A DNA stretch of 64,000 nucleotides from a bacterium (GTDB lineage: Bacteria > JACRDZ01 > JAQUKH01), in NCBI GenBank assembly GCA_040754625.1, contig JBFMCF010000096.1, positions 1,651-65,650 on the forward strand, in the 5' to 3' direction. Positions 1-57,209 of this stretch are shown piece after piece. The first letter of the stretch is position 1, and every line of letters starts with the position of its first letter. Made by a program: the position numbers and the translations under genes. The notes under the pieces are model-generated. The model made no database searches, had not been told where the DNA came from, and was given only the letters and a program-made list of their open reading frames with translations.

Positions 1-11
1 TGAAGCCCTGT

Positions 12-287
12 TTATACGGCTCCAGCTAATTTGAATTTATTAAAATCCTCAAACACCCAATCGTTTTTCAGGGTGCGGTAAATTATTGTGAGAAATTTTC
101 TCGCCGCAGCGATGATCGCTTTGCCACTGCCTTTTCTTGCTTTTATCTTAAAGTAAAATTTCCTCAAATATGGATTGTATTTTATCGCTATCAGATAAGA
201 AGCCAGTTTTTTGTCGTCCTTGAAATCATTCACATTACCAATGGTATTCAAAAGAATCGTTGCCGATATGTCTCCGATTCCTGTCAT
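12..287 (-). pseudogene. IS110-family transposase C-terminal fragment (Transposase_20-like); degenerate remnant
   Basis: The 91-aa ORF has GIGDISAT...NDFKDDKKLASY and NPYLRKFYFKIKARKGSGKAIIAAARKFL, which resemble the conserved C-terminal region of IS110 (DEDD) transposases. The middle section looks deleted and there is no N-terminal catalytic domain. Confidence 0.4.
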
Positions 288-319
288 CGATGTCAGATTC
301 TCCTTTCTATTTTGAACAA

Positions 320-583
320 TTAAGTGGTCGGGTTTGTCAAGACCAATTCTCTGCCACAGTTAAGATGGAAAACGTTTGTCATTAAAGGCCGGCCTTTTTG
401 GCCTTCAATGTTGCCCTGGGAATAAACCTGCCAAGGTGTCCTGTTATCAAGAGACTGATGAAACCTTTCCTTGTTGTAAAACTCGAAATATTCCGTTAAT
501 CCAAGTCTGGCTTCCGGGATCGTCCGATAGTCCCGCAGATACACATTTTCGTATTTAACCGTCCGCCAGAGCCGCTCAATCAC
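320..583 (-). pseudogene. IS3-family OrfB (rve integrase core) C-terminal fragment
   Basis: ERLWRTVKYENVYLRDYRTIPEARLGLTEYFEFYNKERFHQSLDNRTPWQVY matches the C-terminal end of IS3-type DDE transposases (ERFNRTLK...YN.ERPH.SL...TP). The upstream catalytic part is absent. Confidence 0.55.
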
Positions 584-848
584 CTCTTTTACTATTGACC
601 TTTTGAACCAAATCCAAAATATATTTTTGTATCATACCTCCCCCCAAGCAATTTGTCAAGAAAAATTTTAGACTTGTCAACCCAATTTAGAAATGTCCGG
701 TTTTTACTGTTTTTTGTTTTTCTCTTTTCTTTTCAAATTTTAGATAGATAATCATATTTGTGGAGAGTGTGGGTAACTGCGGAGCGGTTATCCAAGTGAT
801 GGGGATAACATCTTTTCGTTATCCCCAGAACGGCACTATCCACAAATA

Positions 849-2159
849 TCAAGCGGCTTTCTTTTCTTTCTCAAACATCGCATTTATTGTTCGCCGCCAT
901 GAATAATCAACCGGCATTTTAAGCTGCTGGACAATTTTCTTTTCAGGCTTTACCCGTTGTTTGACTTTTACCGCTTCTTTTTTTACAGGAAAAATCTCTT
1001 TGTATCTCAGTCTTTTCCCTTTACTTGTTATCGAAACTGAACCGTCCACGCGCTCATTTACCGTGACTTTTCTGGCAGGGATACAATCCAGTATCTGATA
1101 GAATTTTTTGTCGTGATTTACTGTGAAGTCATTCCTGACTGCTCTTTCTGTTTTTACGCAAAGAATATCGTCTAAATTGAAACCTTTGGGTATATTACGA
1201 TGTAAATCTGTCTCTTTTTCAGCTTCTACCGAGAATTTTTTGTTGAATTTAGGCATATATTTTCTTAAGAATTCGTTCGCTTCTTCCATTGAACTTATAT
1301 TTTCCAGTCGCATTTCTTTTATCAACCGATCCTGCAGGGTATTAAATAACCTTTCCACTCTTCCTTTTGCCTGCGGGCTGTTTGCGTGTATCACTTTTAT
1401 CTCGAGTCCCTTCAATGCCCGTTCATACTGGCTTAACAGCGCCTGTTTACCCGCCAATTCATCTTCTATGCTTAATTTCCCGGTCGATTTATACGTTGAA
1501 TGCCTGTCTAAATAAACGCTGCGGGGAATCCCGTACCGCTTTATATATCTTTTCATTAAGTCCATCGCTGGTATCGTTCCTTCGTATTCATAAAATCTGC
1601 AAAATATTTCTCCCTTTGCGTCGTCTATAAAGGCCATCAATACCATCTTTGGCCCTCTGCCTTCAAGCCAATCATGATGAGATCCATCCATCTGTATCAT
1701 CTCCCCAAAATATTCTTTCCGTTCCCTCCATTGCCTGTGTTTCCTGCCTTTTCGACGCCCTTTGTATTCTATACCTTCTTTTACAAACCATTTTCTAAGG
1801 GTTTCATCGCTTATTTTTATTTCATCTCTTTCACTTAGTTTTTCCATGCATAACGTCGGCCCAAAACCAACATATTTTTCTCTGCATTTATCAAGTATCT
1901 TTCCTCTCCATTCCCTCGAAAATTCCCTGTTTGACTCTCTGCCCCGTGATTTATGTATTAAACCTTTTTCCCCTTCTTCTTTTACCCTTTGCACTAATCT
2001 TCTTATCTGACGATCGCTTATTTCTATCTTTCCTGCCGCTTCTTTTTGGGTTAGATGTTTTTTCATTACCTCATGTATTATCTTGACCCGTTTTAACTCT
2101 TTTTGGCTCATTATGATATTGTCCTTTCCTGCCATCAATGTCCTCCTTCCTGGAGGCAT
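849..2159 (-). mobile_element. DDE transposase with N-terminal HTH and rve integrase core (IS481/ISNCY-like), apparently intact
   Basis: 436 aa. The N-terminal HTH is KKHLTQKEAAGKIEISDRQIRRLVQRVKEEG. The DDE core has QMDGSHHDW...YLDRHSTY...QAKGRVERLFNTLQDRL. Structured inverted repeats lie just downstream of the stop (756-847), and near-identical 15-20-bp direct motifs (aaaaattttagactt) lie at about 661 and about 2202. Confidence 0.7.
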
Positions 2160-2293
2160 TTTAGCACCTTCTTATTAGGACATTATCATATTGGTATTAC
2201 AGAAAAATTTTAGACTTTGCCAAACTCTTAGTTGTATCCATTTTTTTTGGGGGGGCCCTGACTCGTCAGTAATTTAACCGTCAATTGGAATGG

Positions 2294-3663: not shown

Positions 3664-3797
3664 TATTTCCACAAATCCCGATTTTGCCTGTAACTGGACA
3701 AATAAACCAGGAGCCTTGAAAAATTATAGAACCTGTTTGGGCCAATCAAACGCAAAACGACCCGCATTACCGAGTATATAATTTTAAATTTATTTTC
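3664..3797. repeat. About 135-bp direct repeat, copy 1 (flanks the TA insertion)
   Basis: About 90% identical to 4553..4693 (tatttccacaaatcccgatt[t/c]tgcctgtaactgga[c/t]aaataaacca...cgcattaccgagtatataattttaaattt). Confidence 0.85.
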
Positions 3798-3851: not shown

Positions 3852-4142
3852 TTACGCCGCCTTAAAACTAATAACCACTTCTTTCCCTAAAGCATGCGCG
3901 ATTTTATGCAATAATTTCAACGAAGGCACCCTTGTATCCGTGCCTTTTTCTAATCTGGCAATTACCGGCTGGCTGGTCCTGGCTTTTTGGGCAAGTTCTT
4001 TTTGGGTTATACCCTCTTTCTGCCTGATTTTCATAACAGCTTTTGCGATTCTATTTTTTATCAATTCGTCTTCGTAATAAATTCTGAATTCTTCATCTTT
4101 TATTTTTTCTTTAATTACGTCATCCAATAAAAGCGTTTTCAT
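3852..4142 (-). CDS. HTH XRE-family antitoxin (HigA-like)
   Basis: 96 aa; GITQKELAQKARTSQPVIARLEKG is a helix-turn-helix. It overlaps the upstream toxin gene by 23 bp, a toxin-first order as in HigBA. Confidence 0.6.
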   Translation of the reverse strand: MKTLLLDDVIKEKIKDEEFRIYYEDELIKNRIAKAVMKIRQKEGITQKELAQKARTSQPVIARLEKGTDTRVPSLKLLHKIAHALGKEVVISFKAA

Positions 4143-4473
4143 TTTTTAATACCTCCATTAAGCGTTTTGCCGCTACTTTTATTTCTTTATCCGGCGCCTT
4201 TTGCGATTGTTTTTTGTAAGAATGCAGCAAAACCATTATATTCTTTTTAATTGTTACATAAAATATTCTATATCCTCCGCCAATACTTCTTATTTTTATT
4301 TCCCAAAGTTTACCATCTATTTGTCGGAATTGAACTCTCGGAGATTCAAGTCCCAATTCCTGTATATTTTCCAAACACCCTAATATTTTTGCCTGATCAG
4401 TTTTTTCTAAACTATTAATAAATTCTAAAACAGGAGATTTCCCATTTGCACTTAAGAAAAATTTTATTTTCAT
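4120..4473 (-). CDS. Type II toxin, RelE/ParE superfamily (HigB/Gp49-like mRNA interferase)
   Basis: 117 aa. Size, the LWEIKIRSIGGGYRIFYV motif and pairing with the downstream XRE antitoxin fit RelE/HigB-family toxins. Confidence 0.5.
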   Translation of the reverse strand: MKIKFFLSANGKSPVLEFINSLEKTDQAKILGCLENIQELGLESPRVQFRQIDGKLWEIKIRSIGGGYRIFYVTIKKNIMVLLHSYKKQSQKAPDKEIKVAAKRLMEVLKNENAFIG

Positions 4474-4548: not shown

Positions 4549-5778
4549 TTAGTATTTCCACAAATCCCGATTCTGCCTGTAACTGGATAAATAAACCAGA
4601 AGCCTCGAAAAATCATAGAACCTGTTGGGGCCGATCAAACGCAAAATTGTCCGCATTACCGAGTATATAATTTTAAATTTAAATTTATTTTCTGATATCT
4701 TGGAATAGCCGCTTGGTTTATACGCAGATGAATGGCCTTTCTTTTCAAACAGGAAATTCTTCCTCGCGAAGCTGCCGACAACGCCGTTTGAGTCGAACGG
4801 ATCGTGGCCGGGAGGCAGTTCTTTTAAAATACACGCGTAAGCGCGGCGAAGCGTCGGGGATATATATTCCCCGCCGGACATATAATCAAACCCGTATTTT
4901 ATCGATTCCGCTCCTGTTTTTTTCGCGGAAAGCTTTTCCCCGTAGGCAGTGCCCAATTCTAAAAGGTCCGGCCGTTTTACATTTTTTTCGTATAAGGACC
5001 TTTTATTCAAATATTCCGGATCCGCGCCGTCAAAATTACTGAAGTGAAAAAAAATGAGAGGATAAATTTTATTTACAAGATAACGGCCTTCACTATCCTT
5101 TGTTATAAACCTCTCATATGAATTCCACGCGGCAGTATTATAACCTAAATTAAATGAAATATATATATCCTTGAATAAACAAGGCGCGATAGTAACCCAC
5201 TTCTGGTCCGTGGACAACCCGAATTGGGACTCCATAAAACTGAACTGCAGGCACCTGTTAGACCACCACTTTAAAAAAGATACTCCTTCCAGGGAATTTT
5301 TTACCGCGTAAAAACCCAGGTTAAACGAACCAAATCTCATCATAGCCATATCGCTTTCTGAAAAATTGTCGGATTGAGGTGTTGTATAGTGAGGGGTTAA
5401 GACTACTGAATGACCGTCTAAATCACATAAAACAGGTTCAACTGAATCATATAAACATGTATCAGCATCTAAAAATATTACCTTTTTAAATCTTTCAAAT
5501 AATTTTAAGGTAAGATACGGCTTAAGGCTGGTACTCAATTCTATGATATCATATTTAAACGCCAGCTCATAAAAGTCCGGAATGCCGACATCTTCAATCC
5601 AGACTATATTGGCTTCAACAGCAGAAAGATCAATAGTTGCCTTCTTATCAATAAGATATATTATTAACTTTATATTATTAAATTTTAATACCGATTCAGC
5701 AAGCACAAGCGCTTTAGGCATATAAGCTAAATTACAAACTGTAAAAATCGCATATTCCTGTTTTTTATCCGGAATCAC
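4549..5778 (-). CDS. Putative glycosyltransferase (GT-A-like, DxD motif)
   Basis: 409 aa, soluble, with the acidic motif FLDADTCLYDS. It lies in the glycosyltransferase block of the locus. Confidence 0.35.
   Translation of the reverse strand: MIPDKKQEYAIFTVCNLAYMPKALVLAESVLKFNNIKLIIYLIDKKATIDLSAVEANIVWIEDVGIPDFYELAFKYDIIELSTSLKPYLTLKLFERFKKVIFLDADTCLYDSVEPVLCDLDGHSVVLTPHYTTPQSDNFSESDMAMMRFGSFNLGFYAVKNSLEGVSFLKWWSNRCLQFSFMESQFGLSTDQKWVTIAPCLFKDIYISFNLGYNTAAWNSYERFITKDSEGRYLVNKIYPLIFFHFSNFDGADPEYLNKRSLYEKNVKRPDLLELGTAYGEKLSAKKTGAESIKYGFDYMSGGEYISPTLRRAYACILKELPPGHDPFDSNGVVGSFARKNFLFEKKGHSSAYKPSGYSKISENKFKFKIIYSVMRTILRLIGPNRFYDFSRLLVYLSSYRQNRDLWKY
4553..4693. repeat. About 135-bp direct repeat, copy 2 (overlaps the 3' end of the glycosyltransferase gene 4549..5778)
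   Basis: Near-identical to 3664..3797; contains an extra aaattt duplication. Confidence 0.85.
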
Positions 5779-7896: not shown

Positions 7897-8018
7897 TTAA
7901 ATGCTCTCAAAAGTGTGATAATGATTTACCTTAATAACGCGGAGATGTTAACATAAAAAGGCTATTTATGTCTATTTAAAAATTGAAGATTCTTCATAAA
8001 AAAAACATAATTAACTGA

Positions 8019-8119
8019 GCCATCGGGGATTTTTTTTATTTCCCGAAGGCTCACATTTGTTTTAGACCCTTCGTCGCTTTGCTCCTCAGGGTGAGTGGTC
8101 GAAACACACCGACCCCTCA
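8019..8119. repeat. MITE-like imperfect palindromic element, copy A (half element)
   Basis: About 85% identical over about 60 bp to the reverse complement of 39859..39920 (tgaggggtcgg.gtgtttcgaccactca.cctgagga..aa...gacgaagg.tctaaaa). It provides the last 11 codons and the stop of ORF 8086..9399. Confidence 0.6.
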
Positions 8120-9399
8120 TTTAATTCCTCTTGTTTTTTAACAATATTTTCAATAATAAATATTAAAGCGATATTAAACCATAAAAACATTGAAATTTTT
8201 TCGTTTTTATTATGGTTAGCAAAAAATATTGTAGTCTGTGAACAAAAAAAGTATCCAACCAAACTCAGCATTATGCCATCAAGTAAATTCTTTAGTTTAA
8301 TATCTTCTATTTTATTCCTCAACTCAAAACACTTTCTAAAAGAAATAACAATAATTATCAAAAAACTAACCAGGCCAATTATTCCGTTTTCCGGAGCGAT
8401 ATGCAAAAATATATTATGCGCGTGCCAGCCGCGCGGCCATTCTTCTTTCACCTCAACTCCTTTATACTTCTGAACAACAACATCATATGTGCCCGGTCCT
8501 GTTCCAAAAAATGGAAAATCTTTAATCATTTTTAAAGAGCTTCCCCATGTAGGGAGCCTGTCTCCAATACTGTCTTGTTTAAAATTTGCAATAGATATAA
8601 TTCTCGTTTTAATACTCGCGGGTAATATTAAATATAATAATACGACAGTCAATAAAATTAAAAGGAAAAATTTCCAATTTTTTAACACCCTGTTGTTAAG
8701 AATAATTAAAAATAAAAAAACGCCCGTAAAACCTATCCAGCTGCCGCGGGAATAACTAATTATTAAACCCATAATTAAAATAATTAATCCCAGTATAAAA
8801 AAAATCGAGGCGGCTGTTTTTTTACGGTAATTCATAAGAAAACTGATTAAAATAGGTATCAGGAGCACTGTCACGGCCCCAAATTCAGCACGGCCGCCAA
8901 AACTATAATAATTACGATTCCAGTAACTTAATTGCATTTTTATATGGTGATAAATACCACGGCTGACTGAATAAAGAACAGCTATTATTAAAATAAACAG
9001 TATTGCCTCCAGTTTGTTTTTATTATCAATATTATTTATTAATAAATAAGCCATGCCTATGTGAAGAAGAAAATCCCGAAAATATAAAAAACTGACCTTT
9101 GGCTGGGAAGAAAAAATTGAGGCGGATATAAATGTTATTAAATAAATTAAGACAGGAAAATCTAAATCGGTCTTTTGAAATTTAATTTCTTTATCAATAG
9201 CTTTTCTAATAAACCAGAATAATATTGCGGCAACTAAAATATTTTTCAAACTATGAAGGCTTATCATTTTACTGCCGACAGCAAAATCAAAGCCAATCCC
9301 GCCCATTACACTTATAAGCAATATGATTAAACTTAAAACCAAAATATCAAGAAATGTTTTAAAATTAATTGAAGGCATCATCATTAAAATACCCAACAA
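8086..9399 (-). CDS. O-antigen ligase/polymerase family membrane protein (Wzy_C domain), paralog A
   Basis: 437 aa polytopic. SRGSWIGF motif in a large periplasmic loop; G..PGT..D; WHAHNIFL. Close paralog of 14582..15853. Confidence 0.6.
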   Translation of the reverse strand: MLGILMMMPSINFKTFLDILVLSLIILLISVMGGIGFDFAVGSKMISLHSLKNILVAAILFWFIRKAIDKEIKFQKTDLDFPVLIYLITFISASIFSSQPKVSFLYFRDFLLHIGMAYLLINNIDNKNKLEAILFILIIAVLYSVSRGIYHHIKMQLSYWNRNYYSFGGRAEFGAVTVLLIPILISFLMNYRKKTAASIFFILGLIILIMGLIISYSRGSWIGFTGVFLFLIILNNRVLKNWKFFLLILLTVVLLYLILPASIKTRIISIANFKQDSIGDRLPTWGSSLKMIKDFPFFGTGPGTYDVVVQKYKGVEVKEEWPRGWHAHNIFLHIAPENGIIGLVSFLIIIVISFRKCFELRNKIEDIKLKNLLDGIMLSLVGYFFCSQTTIFFANHNKNEKISMFLWFNIALIFIIENIVKKQEELNEGSVCFDHSP

Positions 9400-11880: not shown

Positions 11881-13071
11881 TTAATGGCCTTTTACCGCTG
11901 CGCAATAAATTTTTTCATAAAAGGCAAAATCATGATTTGTATATTCAAACCCTTTTTTCTTTGAAATTTCTATCCCTTCACCCGGCGCATCCAGCCCGAT
12001 TAATCTTAAATCATAATCAACCATTATTTTTATCAGTTCTTGAAAATTTACCCTCGCCTGCCATTTTAATTTCTTTTTTGCCTTTGTCACATCTGCTTTG
12101 AGATAATCCACTTCTGTAGGCCTGAAATAACGCGGGTCTATTTCAATTAAAACGTCTCCCTTTTTAATGCTGGAGGTTGGAGGCTGGAGGCTGGAGGTTA
12201 AGGAATGAATGATACCTTTTTCGTTTACACCTTTTCCTTCCCATGCGATTTCAATACCGGCGTATTTAAAAGCAGTCTCAACAAATTCACGGACTTTATA
12301 ACTTTCCCCCGTACCAACGACATAATCATCCGGTTCAGACTGCTGAAGCATAAGCCACATCATTTCTACATATTCAGGGGCAAATCCCCAGTCACGTTTG
12401 GCATCGAGATTTCCCAGATAAAGCTTATCCTGCTTTCCTGCCAATATATTTGCTAAAGCTCTTGTGATTTTTCTTGTTACAAAAGTTTCTCCGCGCCGCG
12501 GGCTTTCGTGATTAAAAAGAATACCGTTGCAGGCAAACATATTATATCCGTCACGGTAATTTTTAGCCATCCAGTAAGAATACAATTTTGCGCAGGCGTA
12601 AGGACTTCTTGGTTCAAAAGGGGTATTTTCAGACTGGGGCGGTTTTGCAGAACCAAATATCTCCGATGACGAGGCTTGATAGAATTTTGTTTGGACGCCG
12701 CTTCTTCTTACCGCTTCCAGCAATCTTACCGTCCCCAGAGCAGTAACATTACTGGTATATTCCGGAATATCAAAACTGACACGTACATGGCTTTGAGCAC
12801 CCAGATGGTATATTTCCTGAGGTTTAATACTATAAATTAAACTGTTTATCTGCTCGGCATCTGATAAATCCCCGTAATGCAGAAAAAGCTTTGCACCGGG
12901 GGAATGAATATCGACATAAATATGATCAATCCTGCCTGTATTAAAGGTACTGGCTCGGCGTATAATACCGTGTACTTCATATCCCCTGGACAAGAGAAAT
13001 TCGGCAAGATAAGAACCATCCTGGCCGGTTATTCCCGTAATTAACGCTTTTTTCGCATTTTTACGCGGCAT
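11881..13071 (-). CDS. gmd: GDP-mannose 4,6-dehydratase
   Basis: [28 protein letters not shown]...[28 protein letters not shown]: canonical Gmd. Carries an unusual loop insert encoded by a 7-bp x4 tandem repeat. Confidence 0.9.
12170..12197. repeat. Heptanucleotide tandem repeat (YTGGAGG x4) inside the gmd coding sequence
   Basis: ctggagg ttggagg ctggagg ctggagg; encodes SSLQPPTSS in a Gmd surface loop. Confidence 0.8.
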
Positions 13072-13145: not shown

Positions 13146-14585
13146 CTACCTTCCATATATATCATCAATTCTCTCGATATCATCTTCCCCTAAATATTCA
13201 CCGTTCTGGACCTCTATTATTTCTAAAGATGTTTCCCCTTGGTTTTCCAGCCGGTGAACGGCAGTTTTTGGAATATAGGCGGATTCGTTTTCACGGACAA
13301 TCAATTCTTTTTCTCCAATCGTAACTTTTGCAATTCCTTTTATAACCACCCAGTGTTCTGAACGATGTTTATGCCTCTGGAGGCTTAATTTAGCATTTTT
13401 ATTTACGATTATTCTCTTAATTTTATACCGGCCACCTTCCTCAAGCACAGTATAACTTCCCCAGGGCCTGTAAGTACAAGTATGTTCTACCGCTTCTTTG
13501 CGGTTATCTTTTTCTAATTTTCCAATAACATCCCTGACTTTCTGGGAACATCCCTTTTTTGCTATAAGCGTGGCATCAGCAGTATCAACCACAAGACAAT
13601 CTTCCAAACCTACCGTGGCTATTAATCTTTTGTCACCAATAATAAGACAATTTTTTGTGTCTGTAGTTAAAATATCACCTATCTTCGCGTTACCCGATTC
13701 ATCTTTTTCGAGTATTTCAAAAAAAGAATCCCATGACCCGATATCGTTCCAATATAAATCCATTGGAATGACCGCGACTTTGTCCGATTTTTCCATCACG
13801 GCGTAATCAATTGAAAGAGAAGGCATTCTACCAAATTCTTTCAGCATATCATCAAAATTTTTATCGAGAAATTCACCAATTTGAGGGGCATGTTTATTTA
13901 ATTCTTTAATAGCTGTCCCAATGGTAAAGGCAAACATTCCCGAGTTCCAGTAATAATCCCCGGAATCAACATATTTCTGCGCGGTCTCTCTATCCGGCTT
14001 CTCAACAAACTTTTCCACCTTTAAATAATTAATTTCTTCTGCTTTCTTCCTTCTGCCTTCTTCCTTCAGTCTTCTGACTTTAATATATCCATACCCCGTT
14101 TCAGGTTTCAAAGGTTTTATACCAAAAGTTGCCATATAGTTATCTTTAGCAACCTCTTCCGCATATTTCATATATTTTTTAAACATATCTTCATCTTCAT
14201 TTTTTATCATCTGGTCTGATGGCAAAACATAAATTAACTCATCCAGCCCGCAGCCAAGTTTTTCAATACAGTATTTCACACCTAATGCTATTGCAGGAGC
14301 GGTATTTTTACTCATAGGCTCAAGAATTATATGAGCAGGCGTATTCGCCTGCTCATCCTGAGTACAACGAAGGATCTCAGAAATATCGGATTTCACATGG
14401 AATTGATATTTATCGTTAGTTATAAAAATAATATCTTTTAATGATACCAAACCTGAAAGCCTTGCTATGGTCTGCTGCAAAAAAGATTTACCATTGTTTA
14501 TTTTTAAAAACTGTTTCGGGTAATTGCGCCTGCTCATCGGCCATAACCGCGTCCCTGAGCCGCCCGCCAAAATAAATGTTTTCAC
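13146..14585 (-). CDS. manC: Mannose-1-phosphate guanylyltransferase / mannose-6-phosphate isomerase (bifunctional, cupin C-terminus)
   Basis: LAGGSGTRLWPMSRRNYPKQFL at the N-terminus; C-terminal cupin HRLEN.GE....IEVQNGEYLGEDDIERIDDIYGR. Confidence 0.85.
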   Translation of the reverse strand: MKTFILAGGSGTRLWPMSRRNYPKQFLKINNGKSFLQQTIARLSGLVSLKDIIFITNDKYQFHVKSDISEILRCTQDEQANTPAHIILEPMSKNTAPAIALGVKYCIEKLGCGLDELIYVLPSDQMIKNEDEDMFKKYMKYAEEVAKDNYMATFGIKPLKPETGYGYIKVRRLKEEGRRKKAEEINYLKVEKFVEKPDRETAQKYVDSGDYYWNSGMFAFTIGTAIKELNKHAPQIGEFLDKNFDDMLKEFGRMPSLSIDYAVMEKSDKVAVIPMDLYWNDIGSWDSFFEILEKDESGNAKIGDILTTDTKNCLIIGDKRLIATVGLEDCLVVDTADATLIAKKGCSQKVRDVIGKLEKDNRKEAVEHTCTYRPWGSYTVLEEGGRYKIKRIIVNKNAKLSLQRHKHRSEHWVVIKGIAKVTIGEKELIVRENESAYIPKTAVHRLENQGETSLEIIEVQNGEYLGEDDIERIDDIYGR

Positions 14586-15853
14586 ACCGCCCTTCCTTTT
14601 TCATCTTGCTTTTTGGCAATATTTTCAATAATAAATATTAAAGCTATGTCAAACCATAAAAACATGGATATCTTTTCATTTTTGTTATGATTAGCGAAAA
14701 ATACTGTTGTTTGAGAGCAAACCAGATAGCCCCCTAAACTTGCCATGGTTCCATTTAACAGATTTTTAAGATGAATATCATTAATTTTTTCTTGTAATTC
14801 AAAATACTTTTTGAAGGAAATAAAAATAATCAACAAAAAACTGAATAATCCAATTAACCCATTCTCTGAAGTAACATGCAAAAAGATATTATGCGCGTGC
14901 CAGCCACGCGTCCAATCTTCTTTAGCATCATTCCCTTTATACTGCTGGGCAATAACATCATATGTCCCCGGGCCTATTCCCAAAAAAGGAAAATCTTTAA
15001 TCATAGCTAAAGAACTTTTCCATGCAGAAATTCTATCTCCTGTAGTATTTTTAAAATCAGCTATGGAAATCATTCTCTGCTTTAAACTGGAGGGTATGAT
15101 TAAAAATAAAAAAACAAGTGTTAGAAAAGTTAAAACAAAAAATCTCCAATTTTTTAATATATGCACATACATCAAAATAAAAAATAAAATAACAGCGATA
15201 AATCCTATCCAGCTCCCGCGTGAATAACTAACTACCATCCCTGTAATTAAAATAATTAATCCTGACACAAAAAAGATTGAAAATGTCAAATTCTTCCTAT
15301 AATTAAGAAGAAATCCAGCTAAAACCGGTATAGTAAGCACAGCAGCAGCTCCAAATTCAGCACGGCCACCAAAGCTATAATAATTTCCATCATCATAGCC
15401 AAGTCTTGAATTTACATGTTGAATAGTCCCTCTGGCTGATGTATAAATAACAGAAATTAAAAAAATAAACAATATTGCTTCCAGTTTATTTTTATTATCA
15501 ATATTATTTATTAATAAAAAAACCATACTTGTATAAAGAATAAAATCCCGAAAATATAAAAAACTGACTTTTGGCTGTGAAGAAAAAACCACAGCAATTA
15601 AAAATGTTATTAAATAAATTAAAACAGGCAAATTCAAGCTGGTTTTAATAAAGCTGCTTTCCTTATAAATGATTTTTTTAATAATCCAAAATAAAATTGT
15701 TGCTATTAAAACATTTTTTAAGCTGTGCAGGCTTACCATTCTATTACCAACAGCGAAGTCAAATCCAACACCGCCCATTATACTAACGAGTAATGGAATT
15801 AAACTTAAAATTAGAACATCAAGAAAGGTTTTAAAAGCAATTGGAGATATCAT
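14582..15853 (-). CDS. O-antigen ligase/polymerase family membrane protein (Wzy_C domain), paralog B
   Basis: 423 aa with the same motifs as paralog A (SRGSWIGF, WHAHNIFLH, ISMFLWF.IALIFIIENI). Internal DNA stretches are about 90% identical to 8086..9399. Confidence 0.6.
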   Translation of the reverse strand: MISPIAFKTFLDVLILSLIPLLVSIMGGVGFDFAVGNRMVSLHSLKNVLIATILFWIIKKIIYKESSFIKTSLNLPVLIYLITFLIAVVFSSQPKVSFLYFRDFILYTSMVFLLINNIDNKNKLEAILFIFLISVIYTSARGTIQHVNSRLGYDDGNYYSFGGRAEFGAAAVLTIPVLAGFLLNYRKNLTFSIFFVSGLIILITGMVVSYSRGSWIGFIAVILFFILMYVHILKNWRFFVLTFLTLVFLFLIIPSSLKQRMISIADFKNTTGDRISAWKSSLAMIKDFPFLGIGPGTYDVIAQQYKGNDAKEDWTRGWHAHNIFLHVTSENGLIGLFSFLLIIFISFKKYFELQEKINDIHLKNLLNGTMASLGGYLVCSQTTVFFANHNKNEKISMFLWFDIALIFIIENIAKKQDEKGRAV

Positions 15854-37806: not shown

Positions 37807-38219
37807 CCTTTTCTCAAATTAATTAAAACCTCATTTATTAAGGTCGATGATGTTCCTTTTGTATAAGGGAAATAAACGATCTTTACTCCAACATCTTTAA
37901 ACCCAGCCTCCATTTTTTCCCATTTATTTTCTTTGTACCAATCATCTCCTACAAACATTATGTCAAACTTCAGTTTCTCCCAGGCCTCAAATTTATTCAT
38001 TGTCTCCTGTGGAATTACAGCATCTACATATCGAATACTGCGTATAATCTCCATGCGCTCTGTAAATGGGATAACTGCCTTTTTGGCCTTGTAGGATACC
38101 AACTCGTCAGTAGTAACTCCAACAATAAGTTTATCGCACATGGATTTTGCGTTTCGCAACAGGTTTAAATGCCCAATGTGGAACAGGTCGTAAACACCAG
38201 TCGTGTAACCAATAATCAT
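37803..38219 (-). CDS. tagD: Glycerol-3-phosphate cytidylyltransferase
   Basis: IIGYTTGVYDLFHIGHLNLLRNAK...VGVTTDE...R.EI...RYVD: HxGH cytidylyltransferase signature; 138 aa. Confidence 0.85.
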   Translation of the reverse strand: MIIGYTTGVYDLFHIGHLNLLRNAKSMCDKLIVGVTTDELVSYKAKKAVIPFTERMEIIRSIRYVDAVIPQETMNKFEAWEKLKFDIMFVGDDWYKENKWEKMEAGFKDVGVKIVYFPYTKGTSSTLINEVLINLRKG

Positions 38220-39790
38220 AGATTTACTCCTTTCAATTCGGTAAAGTTAATATCAGCACCAAATAGTTCCGACAAATTAAATTCAAGCCATTGGTCCACT
38301 GGAGTCGCGGCTTTCGGCAAACCAAATGAAATATTGTCTAGCGGAACGGGGAAACCAACCTTTTTGCGTCGAATAATCGGCTCTGGAATTAAATCCCGAA
38401 AGATGCGCTTTAACGGGCTTTTAATCTCACCGTCCTTCATACGATAACTAAACGCTACACCTGCCATACGTTCAATTAACGGATGACAATCCACAAAAGG
38501 AACACGCGCCTCCACTGAACATAGCATTGTCGAATTATCGAGCCGGCGCAGCAAACCGTGGAGATGCGCCACTTGAAAAAAATGTGCAACAATATCCAGC
38601 GGATTCTTTCGATGCATAAACGGACACAATGCATCTTCCACAATCTCCAGATCATTATGTGAACCATAGGCGTATAATTGGGTAAACTTCGCAACATCCC
38701 ATGTCTTCGCTTCAGACGCCCACCGAAAAATCCTGTCATACCCGAAAAAAAGTTCATCCGCACCTTCTCCGCTTAGAATAACAGTATTTTCTTTTTTGAC
38801 TTCGCTGGTCATTTTATATAGAAGAATTTCATTGGGCACTGACAATGGTTCACGCCGCTTTTTAATCATCCAGCGTCCCAGTGTGACAAATTCCTCGGAT
38901 GTAATTAACACCTCGTGGTGCTCACTATTAATATGTTTAGAAGCCAACCGAGCCCATTTAAATTCATTATTTTCAGTAAATCCAACTGTCCATGTATGCG
39001 GTTTTTGAGCCAATGCTGCTATAATAGTGCTATCCAAACCGCCGCTAAGATAAGAACCAACAGGCACATCTGAAATAAGTCTCTGTTGAACAGACTCAAT
39101 AATCAGCTGCCTTAGTTCATCATCTGTCGGCGGATCCTGATAAGTTTCGGGAAACTGCCAATAACGGTGTATATGCCCTGATAGCATATAACACCCTGCA
39201 GGAAACATCTCAACTCCCTCATATGCGGTCCTTCCATTAAAAAACGTTCGCAGTTTCAGATATTGACGCAGTCCAATCGGATCGGCTTTACTGCAACCAG
39301 TCAATTTTAATATGGGCGCTATCTCCGATGACAATACTAATTCCCCGTTTCTTCGATATATATAAAGCGGCTTTACACCAAGTCTATCCCGCGCCACAAA
39401 TATATCCTGTGTTATTGTATCCAGAATTATAAAGGCAAACATTCCATTAAGCCATTGCAAAAATTTTGGGCCATATTTAGCATATAATTCAACAATAACT
39501 TCCGTGTCGCTTGTGGTTTTCAAAGGAGTTATATTATGCTCACGGGCTAACTCCCTGTAATTATATATTTCACCATTAAAAATTATAACATGGCGTTCAT
39601 CACGGGAATAAAAAGGTTGATTACTACGATCTTCCATGTCCAAAATCTTCAGCCTCTTATGGCCTATTTGAATATTCGTAATTTTTACATAACCCATTGC
39701 ATCAGGGCCGCGATGATGAAGCAGTTCCAATGCAGATAAAAACTCCTTCTTGGAGTATTTATTATCGGAAGTTAATAAGATTCCACACAT
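38216..39790 (-). CDS. Asparagine-synthase-family glutamine amidotransferase, copy 2; start reassigned to the internal ATG
   Basis: MCGILL begins at 39790 with AGAGGT 6 nt upstream; the ORF-track start at 39811 has no RBS. HHRGPD, PP-loop LSGGLDST. Confidence 0.75.
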   Translation of the reverse strand: MCGILLTSDNKYSKKEFLSALELLHHRGPDAMGYVKITNIQIGHKRLKILDMEDRSNQPFYSRDERHVIIFNGEIYNYRELAREHNITPLKTTSDTEVIVELYAKYGPKFLQWLNGMFAFIILDTITQDIFVARDRLGVKPLYIYRRNGELVLSSEIAPILKLTGCSKADPIGLRQYLKLRTFFNGRTAYEGVEMFPAGCYMLSGHIHRYWQFPETYQDPPTDDELRQLIIESVQQRLISDVPVGSYLSGGLDSTIIAALAQKPHTWTVGFTENNEFKWARLASKHINSEHHEVLITSEEFVTLGRWMIKKRREPLSVPNEILLYKMTSEVKKENTVILSGEGADELFFGYDRIFRWASEAKTWDVAKFTQLYAYGSHNDLEIVEDALCPFMHRKNPLDIVAHFFQVAHLHGLLRRLDNSTMLCSVEARVPFVDCHPLIERMAGVAFSYRMKDGEIKSPLKRIFRDLIPEPIIRRKKVGFPVPLDNISFGLPKAATPVDQWLEFNLSELFGADINFTELKGVNL

Positions 39791-39858
39791 TATAACCTCT
39801 ATTTTCCTCATTTAGAAATAAAAACCATCCACAATGCTTATTTATCCATTTATTTATT

Positions 39859-39966
39859 TGAGGGGTCGGGGTGTTTCGACCACTCATCCTGAGGAACGAA
39901 GTGACGAAGGATCTAAAAATATACAAGAGCCCCTTCGCTTTGCTCAGGGTGAACAGTCGGGAAAAC
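39859..39966. repeat. MITE-like imperfect palindromic element, copy B (full element, inverted relative to copy A)
   Basis: The left arm matches the reverse complement of 8042..8119. The right arm (cccttcgctttgctcagggtgaacagtcggg) is an imperfect inverted copy of the left arm. Lies in the 180-bp intergenic gap. Confidence 0.6.
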
Positions 39967-39991
39967 TCCCCGCCTGCTCATTTACTTATCT

Positions 39992-40945
39992 TTATTTAAT
40001 AAACTCCCAATCATCATCTGGAGCACAAACAACTCTTCCCCACTTATTTTTTGGATCCGCCCACACCTCAAAGACATATCCCGCATCAATACAAGGCACA
40101 TTAAGCGGCTCCATTTGTACCATAATATTGGCCTTTCCAATCCCTGCGCCAACCAATGCCAAATCTACATTCCCAATGAAAGGGCCCATATCCACGGAAT
40201 CATATAATGACCTTTTCAAAGAAATCGAACACCACTGAACTTCTAACACTCCTTCCCGCTTCAAACCTTCTATTATTTTCTGCTTTTTTTCTCCTGTTTG
40301 TCCGTTCACAACCAGAACCCTGCGGTTTTTTAACAATTCACCGCGCCGTGGACCAGTGAGCAAAGCGTAAACAAAATAAAATGGGTAATAGTTATTATTA
40401 TTTATGATTATTTTTTTCCCCTTTAGCCACCGTTCAAGCGCTGGGAAATACCGTTCTTGAAATGGAACATTCGTGTAATTCAGATGAAGTGCTAATATTC
40501 CGTTTTCACTTATTTTACGTATCATTTGAGGATAATCCACACGTGCTTTGCGCCACTCATCAGCAGAATATTCTCCCGAATGATAATGTCCTTCAGTAAA
40601 CGGTCCAAGCCCGCCATTCAGAAGAATCCGGTGTTTAAACCGGCTAAGTTCCTGTTTTAATTTTTGAACAAACGGCAATCTTATATCGAAAGGTTGTTCC
40701 CCCAGTAAAAAAAGAAACTCGCCATCACTCATCCTGCAAACGGGCAGGAATTGGCGGCCGCACGCATTAACCAACTTATCTATAAACTCATTATACCACT
40801 CTTCGCAGCCACGTTTTTTTAACGCAAGTGTCTTACTGCTGCCCGGGACACAACTTCTTTCAAAACCGGGAATAACAAATTCGATACTCTCAGGAAACAT
40901 CTGCATTTGGTATTCCTTTGGCAATTTCACTGGTATCTGTTCCAT
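39992..40945 (-). CDS. Hypothetical protein, possibly GT-D (DUF1792)-like glycosyltransferase
   Basis: 317 aa, soluble. CRMSDGEFLFLLGE resembles the R.GDGE motif that I recall for GT-D domains; there is no other recognisable signature. Confidence 0.25.
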   Translation of the reverse strand: MEQIPVKLPKEYQMQMFPESIEFVIPGFERSCVPGSSKTLALKKRGCEEWYNEFIDKLVNACGRQFLPVCRMSDGEFLFLLGEQPFDIRLPFVQKLKQELSRFKHRILLNGGLGPFTEGHYHSGEYSADEWRKARVDYPQMIRKISENGILALHLNYTNVPFQERYFPALERWLKGKKIIINNNNYYPFYFVYALLTGPRRGELLKNRRVLVVNGQTGEKKQKIIEGLKREGVLEVQWCSISLKRSLYDSVDMGPFIGNVDLALVGAGIGKANIMVQMEPLNVPCIDAGYVFEVWADPKNKWGRVVCAPDDDWEFIK

Positions 40946-55582: not shown

Positions 55583-56152
55583 TTAAATTTTTTCAACATC
55601 TGATGCATCTATTTTTAAAGACGCACCATGCATAAGCACGTCCACTGAAATTATTAGTATATGCTGTCCGGACCTTTTTGAAAGAACACCTTCGACTCCT
55701 GAAAGAGGGCCTTTTTTTATCCTCACTCTCTGTCCTTCTTTCAAATAAGGATACGGATCGAGGGGTTCCCGGCTTTCAACAATTCTTCTTAGAAAAATAA
55801 TTTGTTCCTCCGGTACAGGCTCCGGTTCACCATGTTTTATCCCAAGAAATTTCACTACACCCGTTGTCTTCAAAACATTTAACACATTTTGGGGATTTTT
55901 AAGCATATTAACAAAAAGATATCCCGGGAAGAGCGGAAACTTTACCAGTTTTTTTCTATCCTTCCATCTGTTTAGTTTCTCCACAACAGGGAGAAATGTG
56001 TTTATCCCGGTTTCTGTTAACCTCTCCAATACCTTAAACTCATGCCGGGACCTCACATGAATAACATACCAAAAAGCTTTATTAGAAAATTCGAATGGAG
56101 ATTTTCCACTAACAGAATAAAACTTTGAAACCACTCTATCCGATGGATTCAT
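55583..56152 (-). CDS. NusG-family transcription antiterminator paralog (RfaH/UpxY/LoaP-like); start trimmed to the internal Met
   Basis: NGN domain (WYVIHVRSRHEFKV...FPGYLFV) plus a C-terminal KOW (EGQRVRIKKGPLSGVEGVL). The ORF-track N-terminal 39 aa overlap kpsF and look non-coding. Confidence 0.6.
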   Translation of the reverse strand: MNPSDRVVSKFYSVSGKSPFEFSNKAFWYVIHVRSRHEFKVLERLTETGINTFLPVVEKLNRWKDRKKLVKFPLFPGYLFVNMLKNPQNVLNVLKTTGVVKFLGIKHGEPEPVPEEQIIFLRRIVESREPLDPYPYLKEGQRVRIKKGPLSGVEGVLSKRSGQHILIISVDVLMHGASLKIDASDVEKI

Positions 56153-56243
56153 AAAATTGGATAACTTTATTAGTTTTAAAAAATTTTCCGAAGATATATT
56201 AATTTCTTCGATTATAAATGTTAAGAGGTCAAGAATTTTTAAA

Positions 56244-57209
56244 TTATAAACCAATGCTGATAAGATCATGCATTCTGACCATACCTACAACAATTTTTTT
56301 CTTATTTATAACAGGCAAAATTGTTATTGGTTTTTCCCTTTTTTCCATCATTTCCAAAGCTGTAAAAGCTTTCTCATTTTCATAAATAAAAATTGGTTTT
56401 TTATTCATAATATCGTTGATTTTCAATTTAAAAATATCTTTCCCTTTTTCTAGAATTCTTCTTATGTCATAATCCGTTACAAGCCCAATTAATCTACTTT
56501 TTTTATCAATTACTGAAACGGCCCCTGCTTTTTTTTCTGTAATAACCATTAACATTTTGTGAATATTGTCGTATTCGTTAACAACCGGATTCTCCATACC
56601 GCATAACATAATATCCGAAACTAAAAGGTTAAGCCTTTTCCCCAAACGTCCGCCTGGATGAAAAAATGCGAATTCTTCAACCTTGAAATTTCTAAGCTTC
56701 ATTAGTACGACCGCAAATGCGTCCCCAATAACAATTGACACGGTAACGCTTGATGTAGGGGCAAGATTAAAAGGGCATGCTTCTTTAATATCTCCGATAT
56801 TTATTACAATGTCCGAAGTTCTTGCTAAAGGCGAGTTTTTATTGGAAGTTATTGATATAATTTTTACTTTGATTTTTTTAAGGAAAGGAAGCAGGGTGTT
56901 TAATTCGGAACTTTCACCGCTTTTCCCGATAGCAATCACGACATCAGACGAATTTACAATTCCAAGGTCCCCGTGCATAGCTTCCGAGGGATGCATAAAA
57001 ATAGCAGGTGTACCTGTGCTCGCCATTGTGGAAGCAATCTTTTTCGCGGCTATACCTGATTTCCCAATACCTGTTATTATTACCTTTCCCCTGCAATTTA
57101 AAATGGCATTAATCGCTTTTTCAAATTCCCTGCTTACTTCTTTTTTAATATCGGATAGCGCGTTTATTTCAATATCTATGACTTTTTTTATTTCGGCTTG
57201 AATATTCAC
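56244..57209 (-). CDS. kdsD: Arabinose-5-phosphate isomerase (KpsF/KdsD; SIS + tandem CBS)
   Basis: SIS domain GKVIITGIGKSGIAAKKIASTMASTGTPA plus two C-terminal CBS domains; 321 aa. Confidence 0.75.
   Translation of the reverse strand: MNIQAEIKKVIDIEINALSDIKKEVSREFEKAINAILNCRGKVIITGIGKSGIAAKKIASTMASTGTPAIFMHPSEAMHGDLGIVNSSDVVIAIGKSGESSELNTLLPFLKKIKVKIISITSNKNSPLARTSDIVINIGDIKEACPFNLAPTSSVTVSIVIGDAFAVVLMKLRNFKVEEFAFFHPGGRLGKRLNLLVSDIMLCGMENPVVNEYDNIHKMLMVITEKKAGAVSVIDKKSRLIGLVTDYDIRRILEKGKDIFKLKINDIMNKKPIFIYENEKAFTALEMMEKREKPITILPVINKKKIVVGMVRMHDLISIGL

Follow-up and report, generated by a model that had tools for sequence, protein, structure and literature searches.

A REP- or MITE-like hairpin element that probably donated the C-terminal tail and stop codon of a duplicated Wzy_C gene

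The last codons and the stop codon of an O-antigen ligase (Wzy_C) gene are encoded by a small palindromic repeat in the window, the whole 64-kb stretch of bacterial DNA analyzed here. A preliminary description had made this claim from the letters of the sequence, and it is confirmed: the residues EGSVCFDHSP and the TGA that follows them come from one copy of the repeat, designated copy A. The eleven element codons counted in that description are correct if the stop is included; the sense codons number ten. We consider it probable that the repeat is a non-autonomous hairpin element of REP/BIME or MITE type, situated at the 3′ terminus of a duplicated Wzy_C gene, to which it has donated both tail and stop. 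The element is small, noncoding, GC-rich, and built of three modules in a genome of ∼36% GC. The coordinates of its copies and of the genes discussed are collected in Table 1.

Table 1. Positions of the palindromic element, its modules, its relatives, and the associated genes (positions are those of the window unless L005, L007, or L009 is named)
Feature	Location	Strand	Remarks
Copy A, palindromic element	8016..8119	-	104 nt; forward orientation is the window minus strand
H1 hairpin of copy A	8092..8119	-	28 nt; TGAGGGGTCGG-TGTGTTT-CGACCACTCA
Left central arm of copy A	8065..8094	-	TCACCCTGAGGAGCAAAGCGACGAAGGGTC; contains the TGA stop of the gene
H3 hairpin of copy A	8016..8053	-	arms 8016-8027 / 8042-8053, 12 nt, one mismatch; A-rich loop
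Copy B, intergenic	39859..39980	+	122 nt; same three modules, fuller; H1 39859-39886, left arm 39884-39913, spacer, right arm 39930-39952, H3 39950-39980
O-antigen ligase / Wzy_C family gene	8086..9399	-	Pfam PF04932, E = 2.5e-23
TGA stop codon of the Wzy_C gene	8086..8088	-	within the CCTGAGG motif of the element
Paralogous Wzy_C gene without element	14582..15853	-	68% protein identity to 8086..9399; ends KKQDEKGRAV and stop
UpxY-family (RfaH/NusG-like) antiterminator gene	55583..56269
Related element in L007	391-476	-	between PyrK/NfnA-like and GltD/NfnB-like genes
Second palindrome of central-arm type in L005, without H1/H3	4732-4790		GTCATCCTGAGCGATAGCGAAGGATC ... GATCCTT; next intergenic spacer
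Tandem array in L009	684-1375		5.9 x 118-bp unit; upstream of dnaA

The window is AT-rich (31%–41% GC) and holds a polysaccharide-biosynthesis array in one long run, essentially all of its genes being on the minus strand. The NCBI protein for the element-bearing gene, MEW6088373.1 ("MAG: O-antigen ligase family protein [bacterium]"), is 100% identical to the translation of the ORF; as this protein has 432 amino acids, the annotated start would be the ATG at ∼9384. The translation closes with ...KKQEELNEGSVCFDHSP and a stop. Two other features of the locus were observed. A 129-nt direct repeat (3664–3792 and 4553–4681, 91%) brackets a Gp49/HigB-like toxin gene (4120..4473, minus strand) and an HTH_3 antitoxin gene (3852..4142, minus strand) and duplicates the 3′ end of a GT8-like gene (4549..5778), at the end of which the toxin-antitoxin cassette looks to have been inserted. 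The heptanucleotide GCTGGAG is repeated 4.1 times in tandem at 12169–12197, inside a GDP-mannose 4,6-dehydratase gene (11881..13071, minus strand); as seven bases are not divisible by three, slippage would put the gene out of frame, and the repeat is a possible site of phase variation.

A repeat search of the window paired two arms, 8060–8124 on the minus strand and 39854–39918 on the plus strand, which are 65 nt long and 88% complementary. With blastn-short, copies A and B aligned over 60 nt at 90% (E ∼2e-15), and the 16-mer GTGTTTCGACCACTCA has exactly two occurrences in the window, where 0.22 matches are expected at ≤3 mismatches. The match between the copies is real and not a product of chance. 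Copy B had been described as inverted and fuller; it is indeed fuller, and its end, previously placed at 39966, is corrected to 39980. The hairpin assigned to 8019–8053 does belong to the element, as its H3 module, but its arms are those given in Table 1 and begin at 8016, so that copy A extends from 8016 to 8119.

In the window copies, two hairpins, H1 and H3, flank a central arm, each overlapping it by 3–4 nt. Copy A consists, in order, of H1, the left central arm, an 11-nt spacer, and H3, and has no right central arm. Copy B also has a right arm (CCCCTTCGCTTTGCTCAGGGTGA), which is shorter than the left arm and pairs with it, the two being separated by a 16-nt spacer. Alignment and folding revealed the same three-module anatomy in A, B, and L005, one of two relatives found in other hosts (see below), and H1 plus the left arm in the other, L007. 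H1 of copy A, which as codons reads E G S V C F D H S, is identical to H1 of copy B at 27/28 positions, and the same module is present in both relatives. H3 of copy A resembles H3 of copy B and of L005, and for this reason it is regarded as part of the element and not as a separate terminator. The consensus is TGAGGGGTCGG-(K)GTGTTT-CGACC(M)CTCA for H1, TCA(Y)CCTGAGGA(R)C(R)AAG(Y)GACGAAGG(R)TC for the central arm (in short form TCATCCTGAGGA.C.AAG.GACGAAGG.TC), and TGA(R)C..TCGGG-(A-rich loop)-CCCCG..CTCA for H3. Copy B occupies the spacer between two minus-strand genes, 11 nt beyond the stop codon of 39992..40945 and 47 nt ahead of the start codon of 38216..39811, and is antisense to its operon.

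The effect of copy A on the end of the gene can be read directly. The minus strand of the gene ends AAA AAA CAA GAG GAA TTA AAT GAG GGG TCG GTG TGT TTC GAC CAC TCA CCC TGA, of which the ten sense codons EGSVCFDHSP, the last base of the Asn codon, and the TGA stop are derived from the element. The paralog was said to end differently, and it does. Ungapped DNA similarity between the two genes runs to 8125 / 14600, five bases upstream of the first base of the element (8119), and the genes part at "gaa tta aat gag" in 8086..9399 vs "gaa aaa gga agg" in 14582..15853. Beyond 8125 / 14600 the element-bearing gene reads TTAAA-TGAGGGG... and the paralog AAAGGAAGGGCGGTGTGA; TAAATGAGGGG is common to A, L005, and L007. 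The break in paralog similarity coincides with the left edge of the element. The preliminary description had proposed a comparison of the 3′ ends of ligase genes; among seven homologs, no two share the tail that follows the final conserved block (...IENI.KKQ.E), and its length is ∼1–12 residues. Because the tail differs in every homolog it is unconstrained, and a tail encoded by the element is likely to be tolerated. The nearest relatives of 8086..9399 are ≤70% identical and are located at the position of the paralog, so that the case for an insertion comes from the paralog comparison. From that comparison we infer that the native tail was replaced by residues of the element, the "rewritten C-terminus" of the preliminary description. 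Read from the sequence, the ORF would extend without copy A for ∼7–8 codons to a TGA in the spacer. An element-free ORF would therefore still stop soon, and the element changes the tail but does not rescue a truncated gene.

On the forward strand of the element, frame 1 opens with TGA, frame 2 has its TGA at CCTGAGG, 30 nt further in, and frame 3 is open and runs on through the element for at least 34 codons. With opal codons in two of the three forward frames, an entering ORF would usually be closed at once or after ∼10 codons. Frame use is directly readable in two cases. The Wzy_C gene enters the element in frame 2, which gives 10 residues and then the stop; the PyrK/NfnA-like gene upstream of the L007 copy enters in frame 1, and the first three bases of the element are its stop. 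In L005, the upstream gene stops 45 nt before the element.

Relatives of the element were found in two other sources. A scan of 185,579 species-representative genomes with the 20-base H1 core gave two loci, one real (L005) and one due to chance (L004), and a scan of JGI metagenomes with a 21-base core gave one real locus (L007) and one chance match (L006). Both chance matches were rejected: they lie within high-GC coding sequence, and their similarity is confined to the search pattern. L005 is a MAG labelled Pseudomonadota (46% GC in the fetched stretch) and L007 a JGI metagenome contig (56% GC in the fetched stretch). Each matches the window copies for at least 15 bases beyond the search pattern on both sides. 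They have AATGAGGGGTCGGGGTGTTTCGACCCCTCATCCTGAG in common with the window copies, with 35/36 nt identical to copy B over H1 and the start of the arm, and past it both go on CGAAG...CGAAGGATC. L005 has a more elaborate center and an H3 (TGACCCCTCGGGG-AAAAAACT-CCCCGAGGGGTCA); L007 is much like copy A in its H1 and left arm. The flanking genes are unrelated in each case. LPG_synthase_TM genes occur in both L005 and the window, but at only 29% identity over 55 residues they were rejected as a sign of related hosts.

These relatives decide against an origin within the contig alone, by local duplication, gene conversion, or misassembly, and without any wider family. Such an origin, to which the preliminary description would have turned had only two copies existed, fits the finding of just two copies in the 64 kb read. 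However, true relatives are present in two unrelated sources. In addition, copies A and B are mismatched at 10% of positions and set apart by an indel of 20–30 nt, unlike a misassembly, and the ORF shares its C-terminus with the protein that NCBI annotates on the deposited MAG contig. We regard an event of this kind as extremely unlikely.

Further searches yielded little. In IMG/VR viral contigs there was no relevant match to the H1 core, to its junction with the arm, or to an H1 pattern from which the loop was left out, and two IMG/VR loci (L012 and L013) were rejected as generic hairpins without the arm. Plasmid BLAST returned nothing for copy B and a 30-nt match only for the L009 unit described below, and a concatenated six-frame peptide query from the element gave no scorable proteins. 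The genome of L005 has one copy of the H1 core. From these scans the family looks rare and low-copy. A near-identical 36-nt module across very different base compositions, together with low copy number, is the mildly unusual aspect of the element; such conservation of a noncoding module across hosts of 36%, 46%, and 56% GC suggests horizontal movement or a conserved protein partner.

The central arm has a wider distribution. Copy B was translated in its open frame and searched against 1.84 billion representative proteins, which gave two "proteins" made of repeated CHPEERSDEGS / VILRSAATKDL / ILRVAQDD motifs. In a follow-up protein search there were 2,052 word-sharing candidates, with seven besides the query at E ≤ 0.01. 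Proteins of the CHPEERSDEGS type are evidently spurious ORFs across arrays of GTCATCCTGAGGAGCG(C)AGCGACGAAGGATC palindromes. One such array, in L009, has as its unit a GTCATCCTGAGGAGCGCAGCGACGAAGGATC ... GATCCTTCGCTGCGCTCAGGATGAC palindrome, and gene callers annotate it as several hypothetical proteins. The arm of copy A is identical to the L009 arm at 26/31 positions, a count that includes the preceding C, and the arm of copy B at 27/31. Single arms were also found inside the riboflavin operon of a Zixibacteriota MAG, central arms in two IMG/VR contigs, and a second palindrome of this type in L005, where it adjoins an apparently ordinary terminator hairpin. Judging by these sequences, the central arm belongs to a palindrome class spread over several lineages. 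No Pfam family for the repeat-derived spurious ORFs was found, and literature searches with sequence strings gave no published name for the GTCATCCTGAGGAGCG.AGCGACGAAGGATC palindromes (primer coincidences at most). Like the window arms, these palindromes of environmental MAGs are bulged and asymmetric; the window arm differs in being fused on both sides, to H1 and H3, and this composite was recovered from three sources only.

RNA structure prediction, another proposal of the preliminary description, gave strong folds. All four strands tested form structures much more stable than those of shuffled controls (z = -4.0 to -5.3). The minus-strand RNA of copy A has a predicted energy of -42.4 kcal/mol (z = -5.3), and copy B, as a single long hairpin, has one of -52.7 kcal/mol (z = -4.8). 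Besides this long imperfect palindrome, copy B can adopt an alternative fold of three hairpins. Neither copy contains an intrinsic terminator, that is, a GC-rich hairpin with a direct U-tract. In copy A a T-run starts ∼12 nt past H3, and because no U-tract follows directly, H3 is no canonical intrinsic terminator. The UpxY antiterminator gene lies upstream of ∼48 kb of co-directional polysaccharide genes, and hairpins within this run, copies A and B among them, would then be read through. Rfam gave nothing at the gathering score over the whole window, and at E ≤ 10 or E ≤ 1 only weak generic-hairpin matches. Two specific RNA classes were considered and rejected: a hammerhead-like CUGANGA...GAA core, which has no workable stem II and no Rfam match, and a bacterial SECIS after the UGA, which likewise has no Rfam match and would be implausible for a Wzy_C enzyme.

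Stable folds raise the question of a selected cis-acting RNA element, conserved but immobile, that serves as an mRNA stabilizer, a processing site, or a modulator of translation termination. Very strong conservation of ∼38 nt across distant hosts would agree with such a role, as would the sense orientation of three of the four copies between co-transcribed genes and the position of the L007 copy inside a PyrK/NfnA-like and GltD/NfnB-like gene pair. Nevertheless, we judge it very unlikely. The copies differ from one another by entire modules, their neighboring genes are unrelated throughout, copy B is antisense to its operon, and no Rfam family was matched at the gathering score or E ≤ 10. No covariation backs a selected structure among the four nearly invariant copies; the sole stem difference in H1 (A vs C) breaks a pair, with no compensatory change.

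The ends and flanks of the element bear on its class. A classical MITE would be the deletion derivative of an IS, with terminal inverted repeats, a fixed TTAA or TA duplication, and a parent transposase, and copy A would be a transposition into the last codons of the gene. Indeed, the element has inverted ends (TGAG...CTCA), which in copy A extend into AATTAA / TTAATT to give an inverted repeat of 25 nt at 72%. TTAA flanks A on both sides at a one-base offset, and TTTATT / TTTACT flank B (TTTAYT, 5/6). The size of 104–122 nt and the long-hairpin fold are also MITE-like (Table 1 of the review PMC2229807), and the copies in different hosts have differing gene contexts. But the terminal inverted repeats (TGAGnnnnCGGGG) match at only 9–10/13 positions, and the flanking repeats vary in sequence, length, and offset among the three AT-rich sites of A, B, and L005, being absent in the last. 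In AT-rich spacers, chance alone would produce 4–5 matching bases at about the few-per-cent level, and with three sites the flanking repeats are not separable from chance; as TTAA is itself palindromic, a duplication at copy A would look just like an extension of the inverted repeat. The copies have swapped internal modules, a pattern typical of REP/BIME mosaics rather than of deletion derivatives of an IS, and neither the species-representative nor the JGI scan gave a multi-copy genome. The preliminary description had called the repeat MITE-like; its ends do not support a MITE in the strict sense, and we consider this origin unlikely.

No transposase related to the element was found among the window ORFs scanned against Pfam (all but ∼35). 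The sole intact transposase seen in the window is of the ISNCY family (849..2159, minus strand). Remains of other IS elements lie near the edge of the polysaccharide locus (window 1–2200), namely an IS110-type fragment (12..287, minus strand) and an IS3-type rve fragment (320..583, minus strand). The ends of all of these are unrelated to those of the palindromic element, and an ISNCY-derived MITE was dropped for this reason. An integron attC site was likewise rejected: the core sites (RYYYAAC ... GTTRRRY) are absent, the ends being TGAG.../...CTCA, and the copy A flank, GTTAATT, fails GTTRRRY; the copy B flank reads TTTACTT.

Several families of bacterial MITEs, namely Coxiella QMITE1/2, Rickettsia RPEs, Correia/NEMIS, ERIC, and YPAL, share with the element a size of ∼100–200 nt, a long stable RNA hairpin, an intergenic and gene-3′-end siting, and the donation of C-terminal residues and stops. 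QMITE1/2 overlap the C termini of ubiB, pntAA, mutT, nagZ, ruvB, and others by 1–50 bp, and in one strain supply the 33 C-terminal residues of EnhC (PMC5896051); in-frame fusion to ORFs is documented for RPE, ERIC, Correia, and YPAL elements (review PMC2229807). Such families are characterized by well-defined terminal inverted repeats, by direct repeats that are usually TA or longer, and by a copy number per genome in the tens to hundreds, where the window offers imperfect ends, inconsistent flanking repeats, and two copies in 64 kb.

In organization the element also resembles REP, BIME, and REPIN sequences (PMC3733652; Bertels and Rainey, 2011, PMC3116915). Shared features are short GC-rich stem-loops whose inverted pairs form larger hairpins, a location immediately 3′ of an ORF and between co-directional genes, ends that often serve as the stop codon of the neighboring gene, and mosaic, modular copies. 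In REPs, an unpaired GTAG/CGTC tetranucleotide tags one end of a 20–40 nt palindrome (PMC3733652), and REP termini often supply stop codons, ∼10% of intragenic REPs being located at ORF ends (Di Nocera et al., 2013, PMC3733652). The window element differs in its lack of a GTAG/CGTC tag (its stems are flanked by AAA/TGAG and TCA/TCC), in that no RAYT was seen, and in its apparently low copy number.

It could be argued that the element is a true REP doublet or REPIN, handled by a single-copy HUH tyrosine transposase (RAYT/TIRYT) and kept in the extragenic space that follows genes, and that copy A merely abuts the ORF. Copy B has the arrangement of such a doublet, with two inverted arms of ∼55 nt, each containing its own hairpin, around the 16-nt spacer; copy A lacks half of it. 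Copies also lie just past stop codons between co-directional genes, the commonest position of REPs, whose termini frequently donate stops (PMC3733652), and H1 and H3 carry GGGGTCGG / GGGGTCA, which are close to the GGGGWSAS of TIRYT-flanking repeats, a resemblance only. Yet the stems have no adjoining GTAG or CGTC tag, and a scan of ∼40 ORFs from the window or the loci gave no cognate Y1 (HUH) transposase. REP families are usually abundant and lineage-specific, and REPINs number tens to hundreds per genome, whereas here the core is near-identical across hosts of 36%–56% GC and single-copy in the only reference genome matched. We therefore regard a REPIN in this narrow sense as improbable.

Our preferred reading is thus the broader one of a REP/BIME- or MITE-like hairpin element on the 3′ end of the Wzy_C gene. 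In outline, the element, mobilized in trans by some enzyme, would have arrived by insertion or recombination after the gene duplication. A native, poorly conserved cytoplasmic tail would have been replaced by the ten element-encoded residues, with translation ending at the TGA of the CCTGAGG motif. The element would be co-transcribed within the long co-directional polysaccharide operon, which carries the UpxY-type antiterminator, and its stable hairpins may act on the mRNA as a barrier to 3′-exonucleases or as a processing site, not as a terminator. Its present-day effect, if any, would most likely be at the RNA level, in 3′-end protection or processing.

A more far-reaching possibility, which we think unlikely, is that H1-arm-H3 is an undescribed low-copy element that moves between distant bacteria, is built on a widespread, apparently unnamed palindrome class, and caps itself; it might be mobilized by an HUH/Y1 enzyme or kept as a stabilizer of mRNA 3′ ends. 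If so, the opal codons in two of three frames would let it land at or next to gene ends in operons and avoid long read-through proteins.

Overlap of small palindromic repeats with the 3′ ends of genes is documented, and the present case is therefore real but fairly ordinary. It offers a clean, annotated example in which a mobile-looking hairpin repeat appears to have replaced the C-terminal tail of a membrane enzyme and donates its stop codon, and in another organism an independent copy (L007) donates a stop in a different frame. For annotation it carries a warning: the last residues of such proteins are repeat-derived, and the same repeats yield spurious "hypothetical proteins" with CHPEERSDEGS / VILRSAATKDL motifs.
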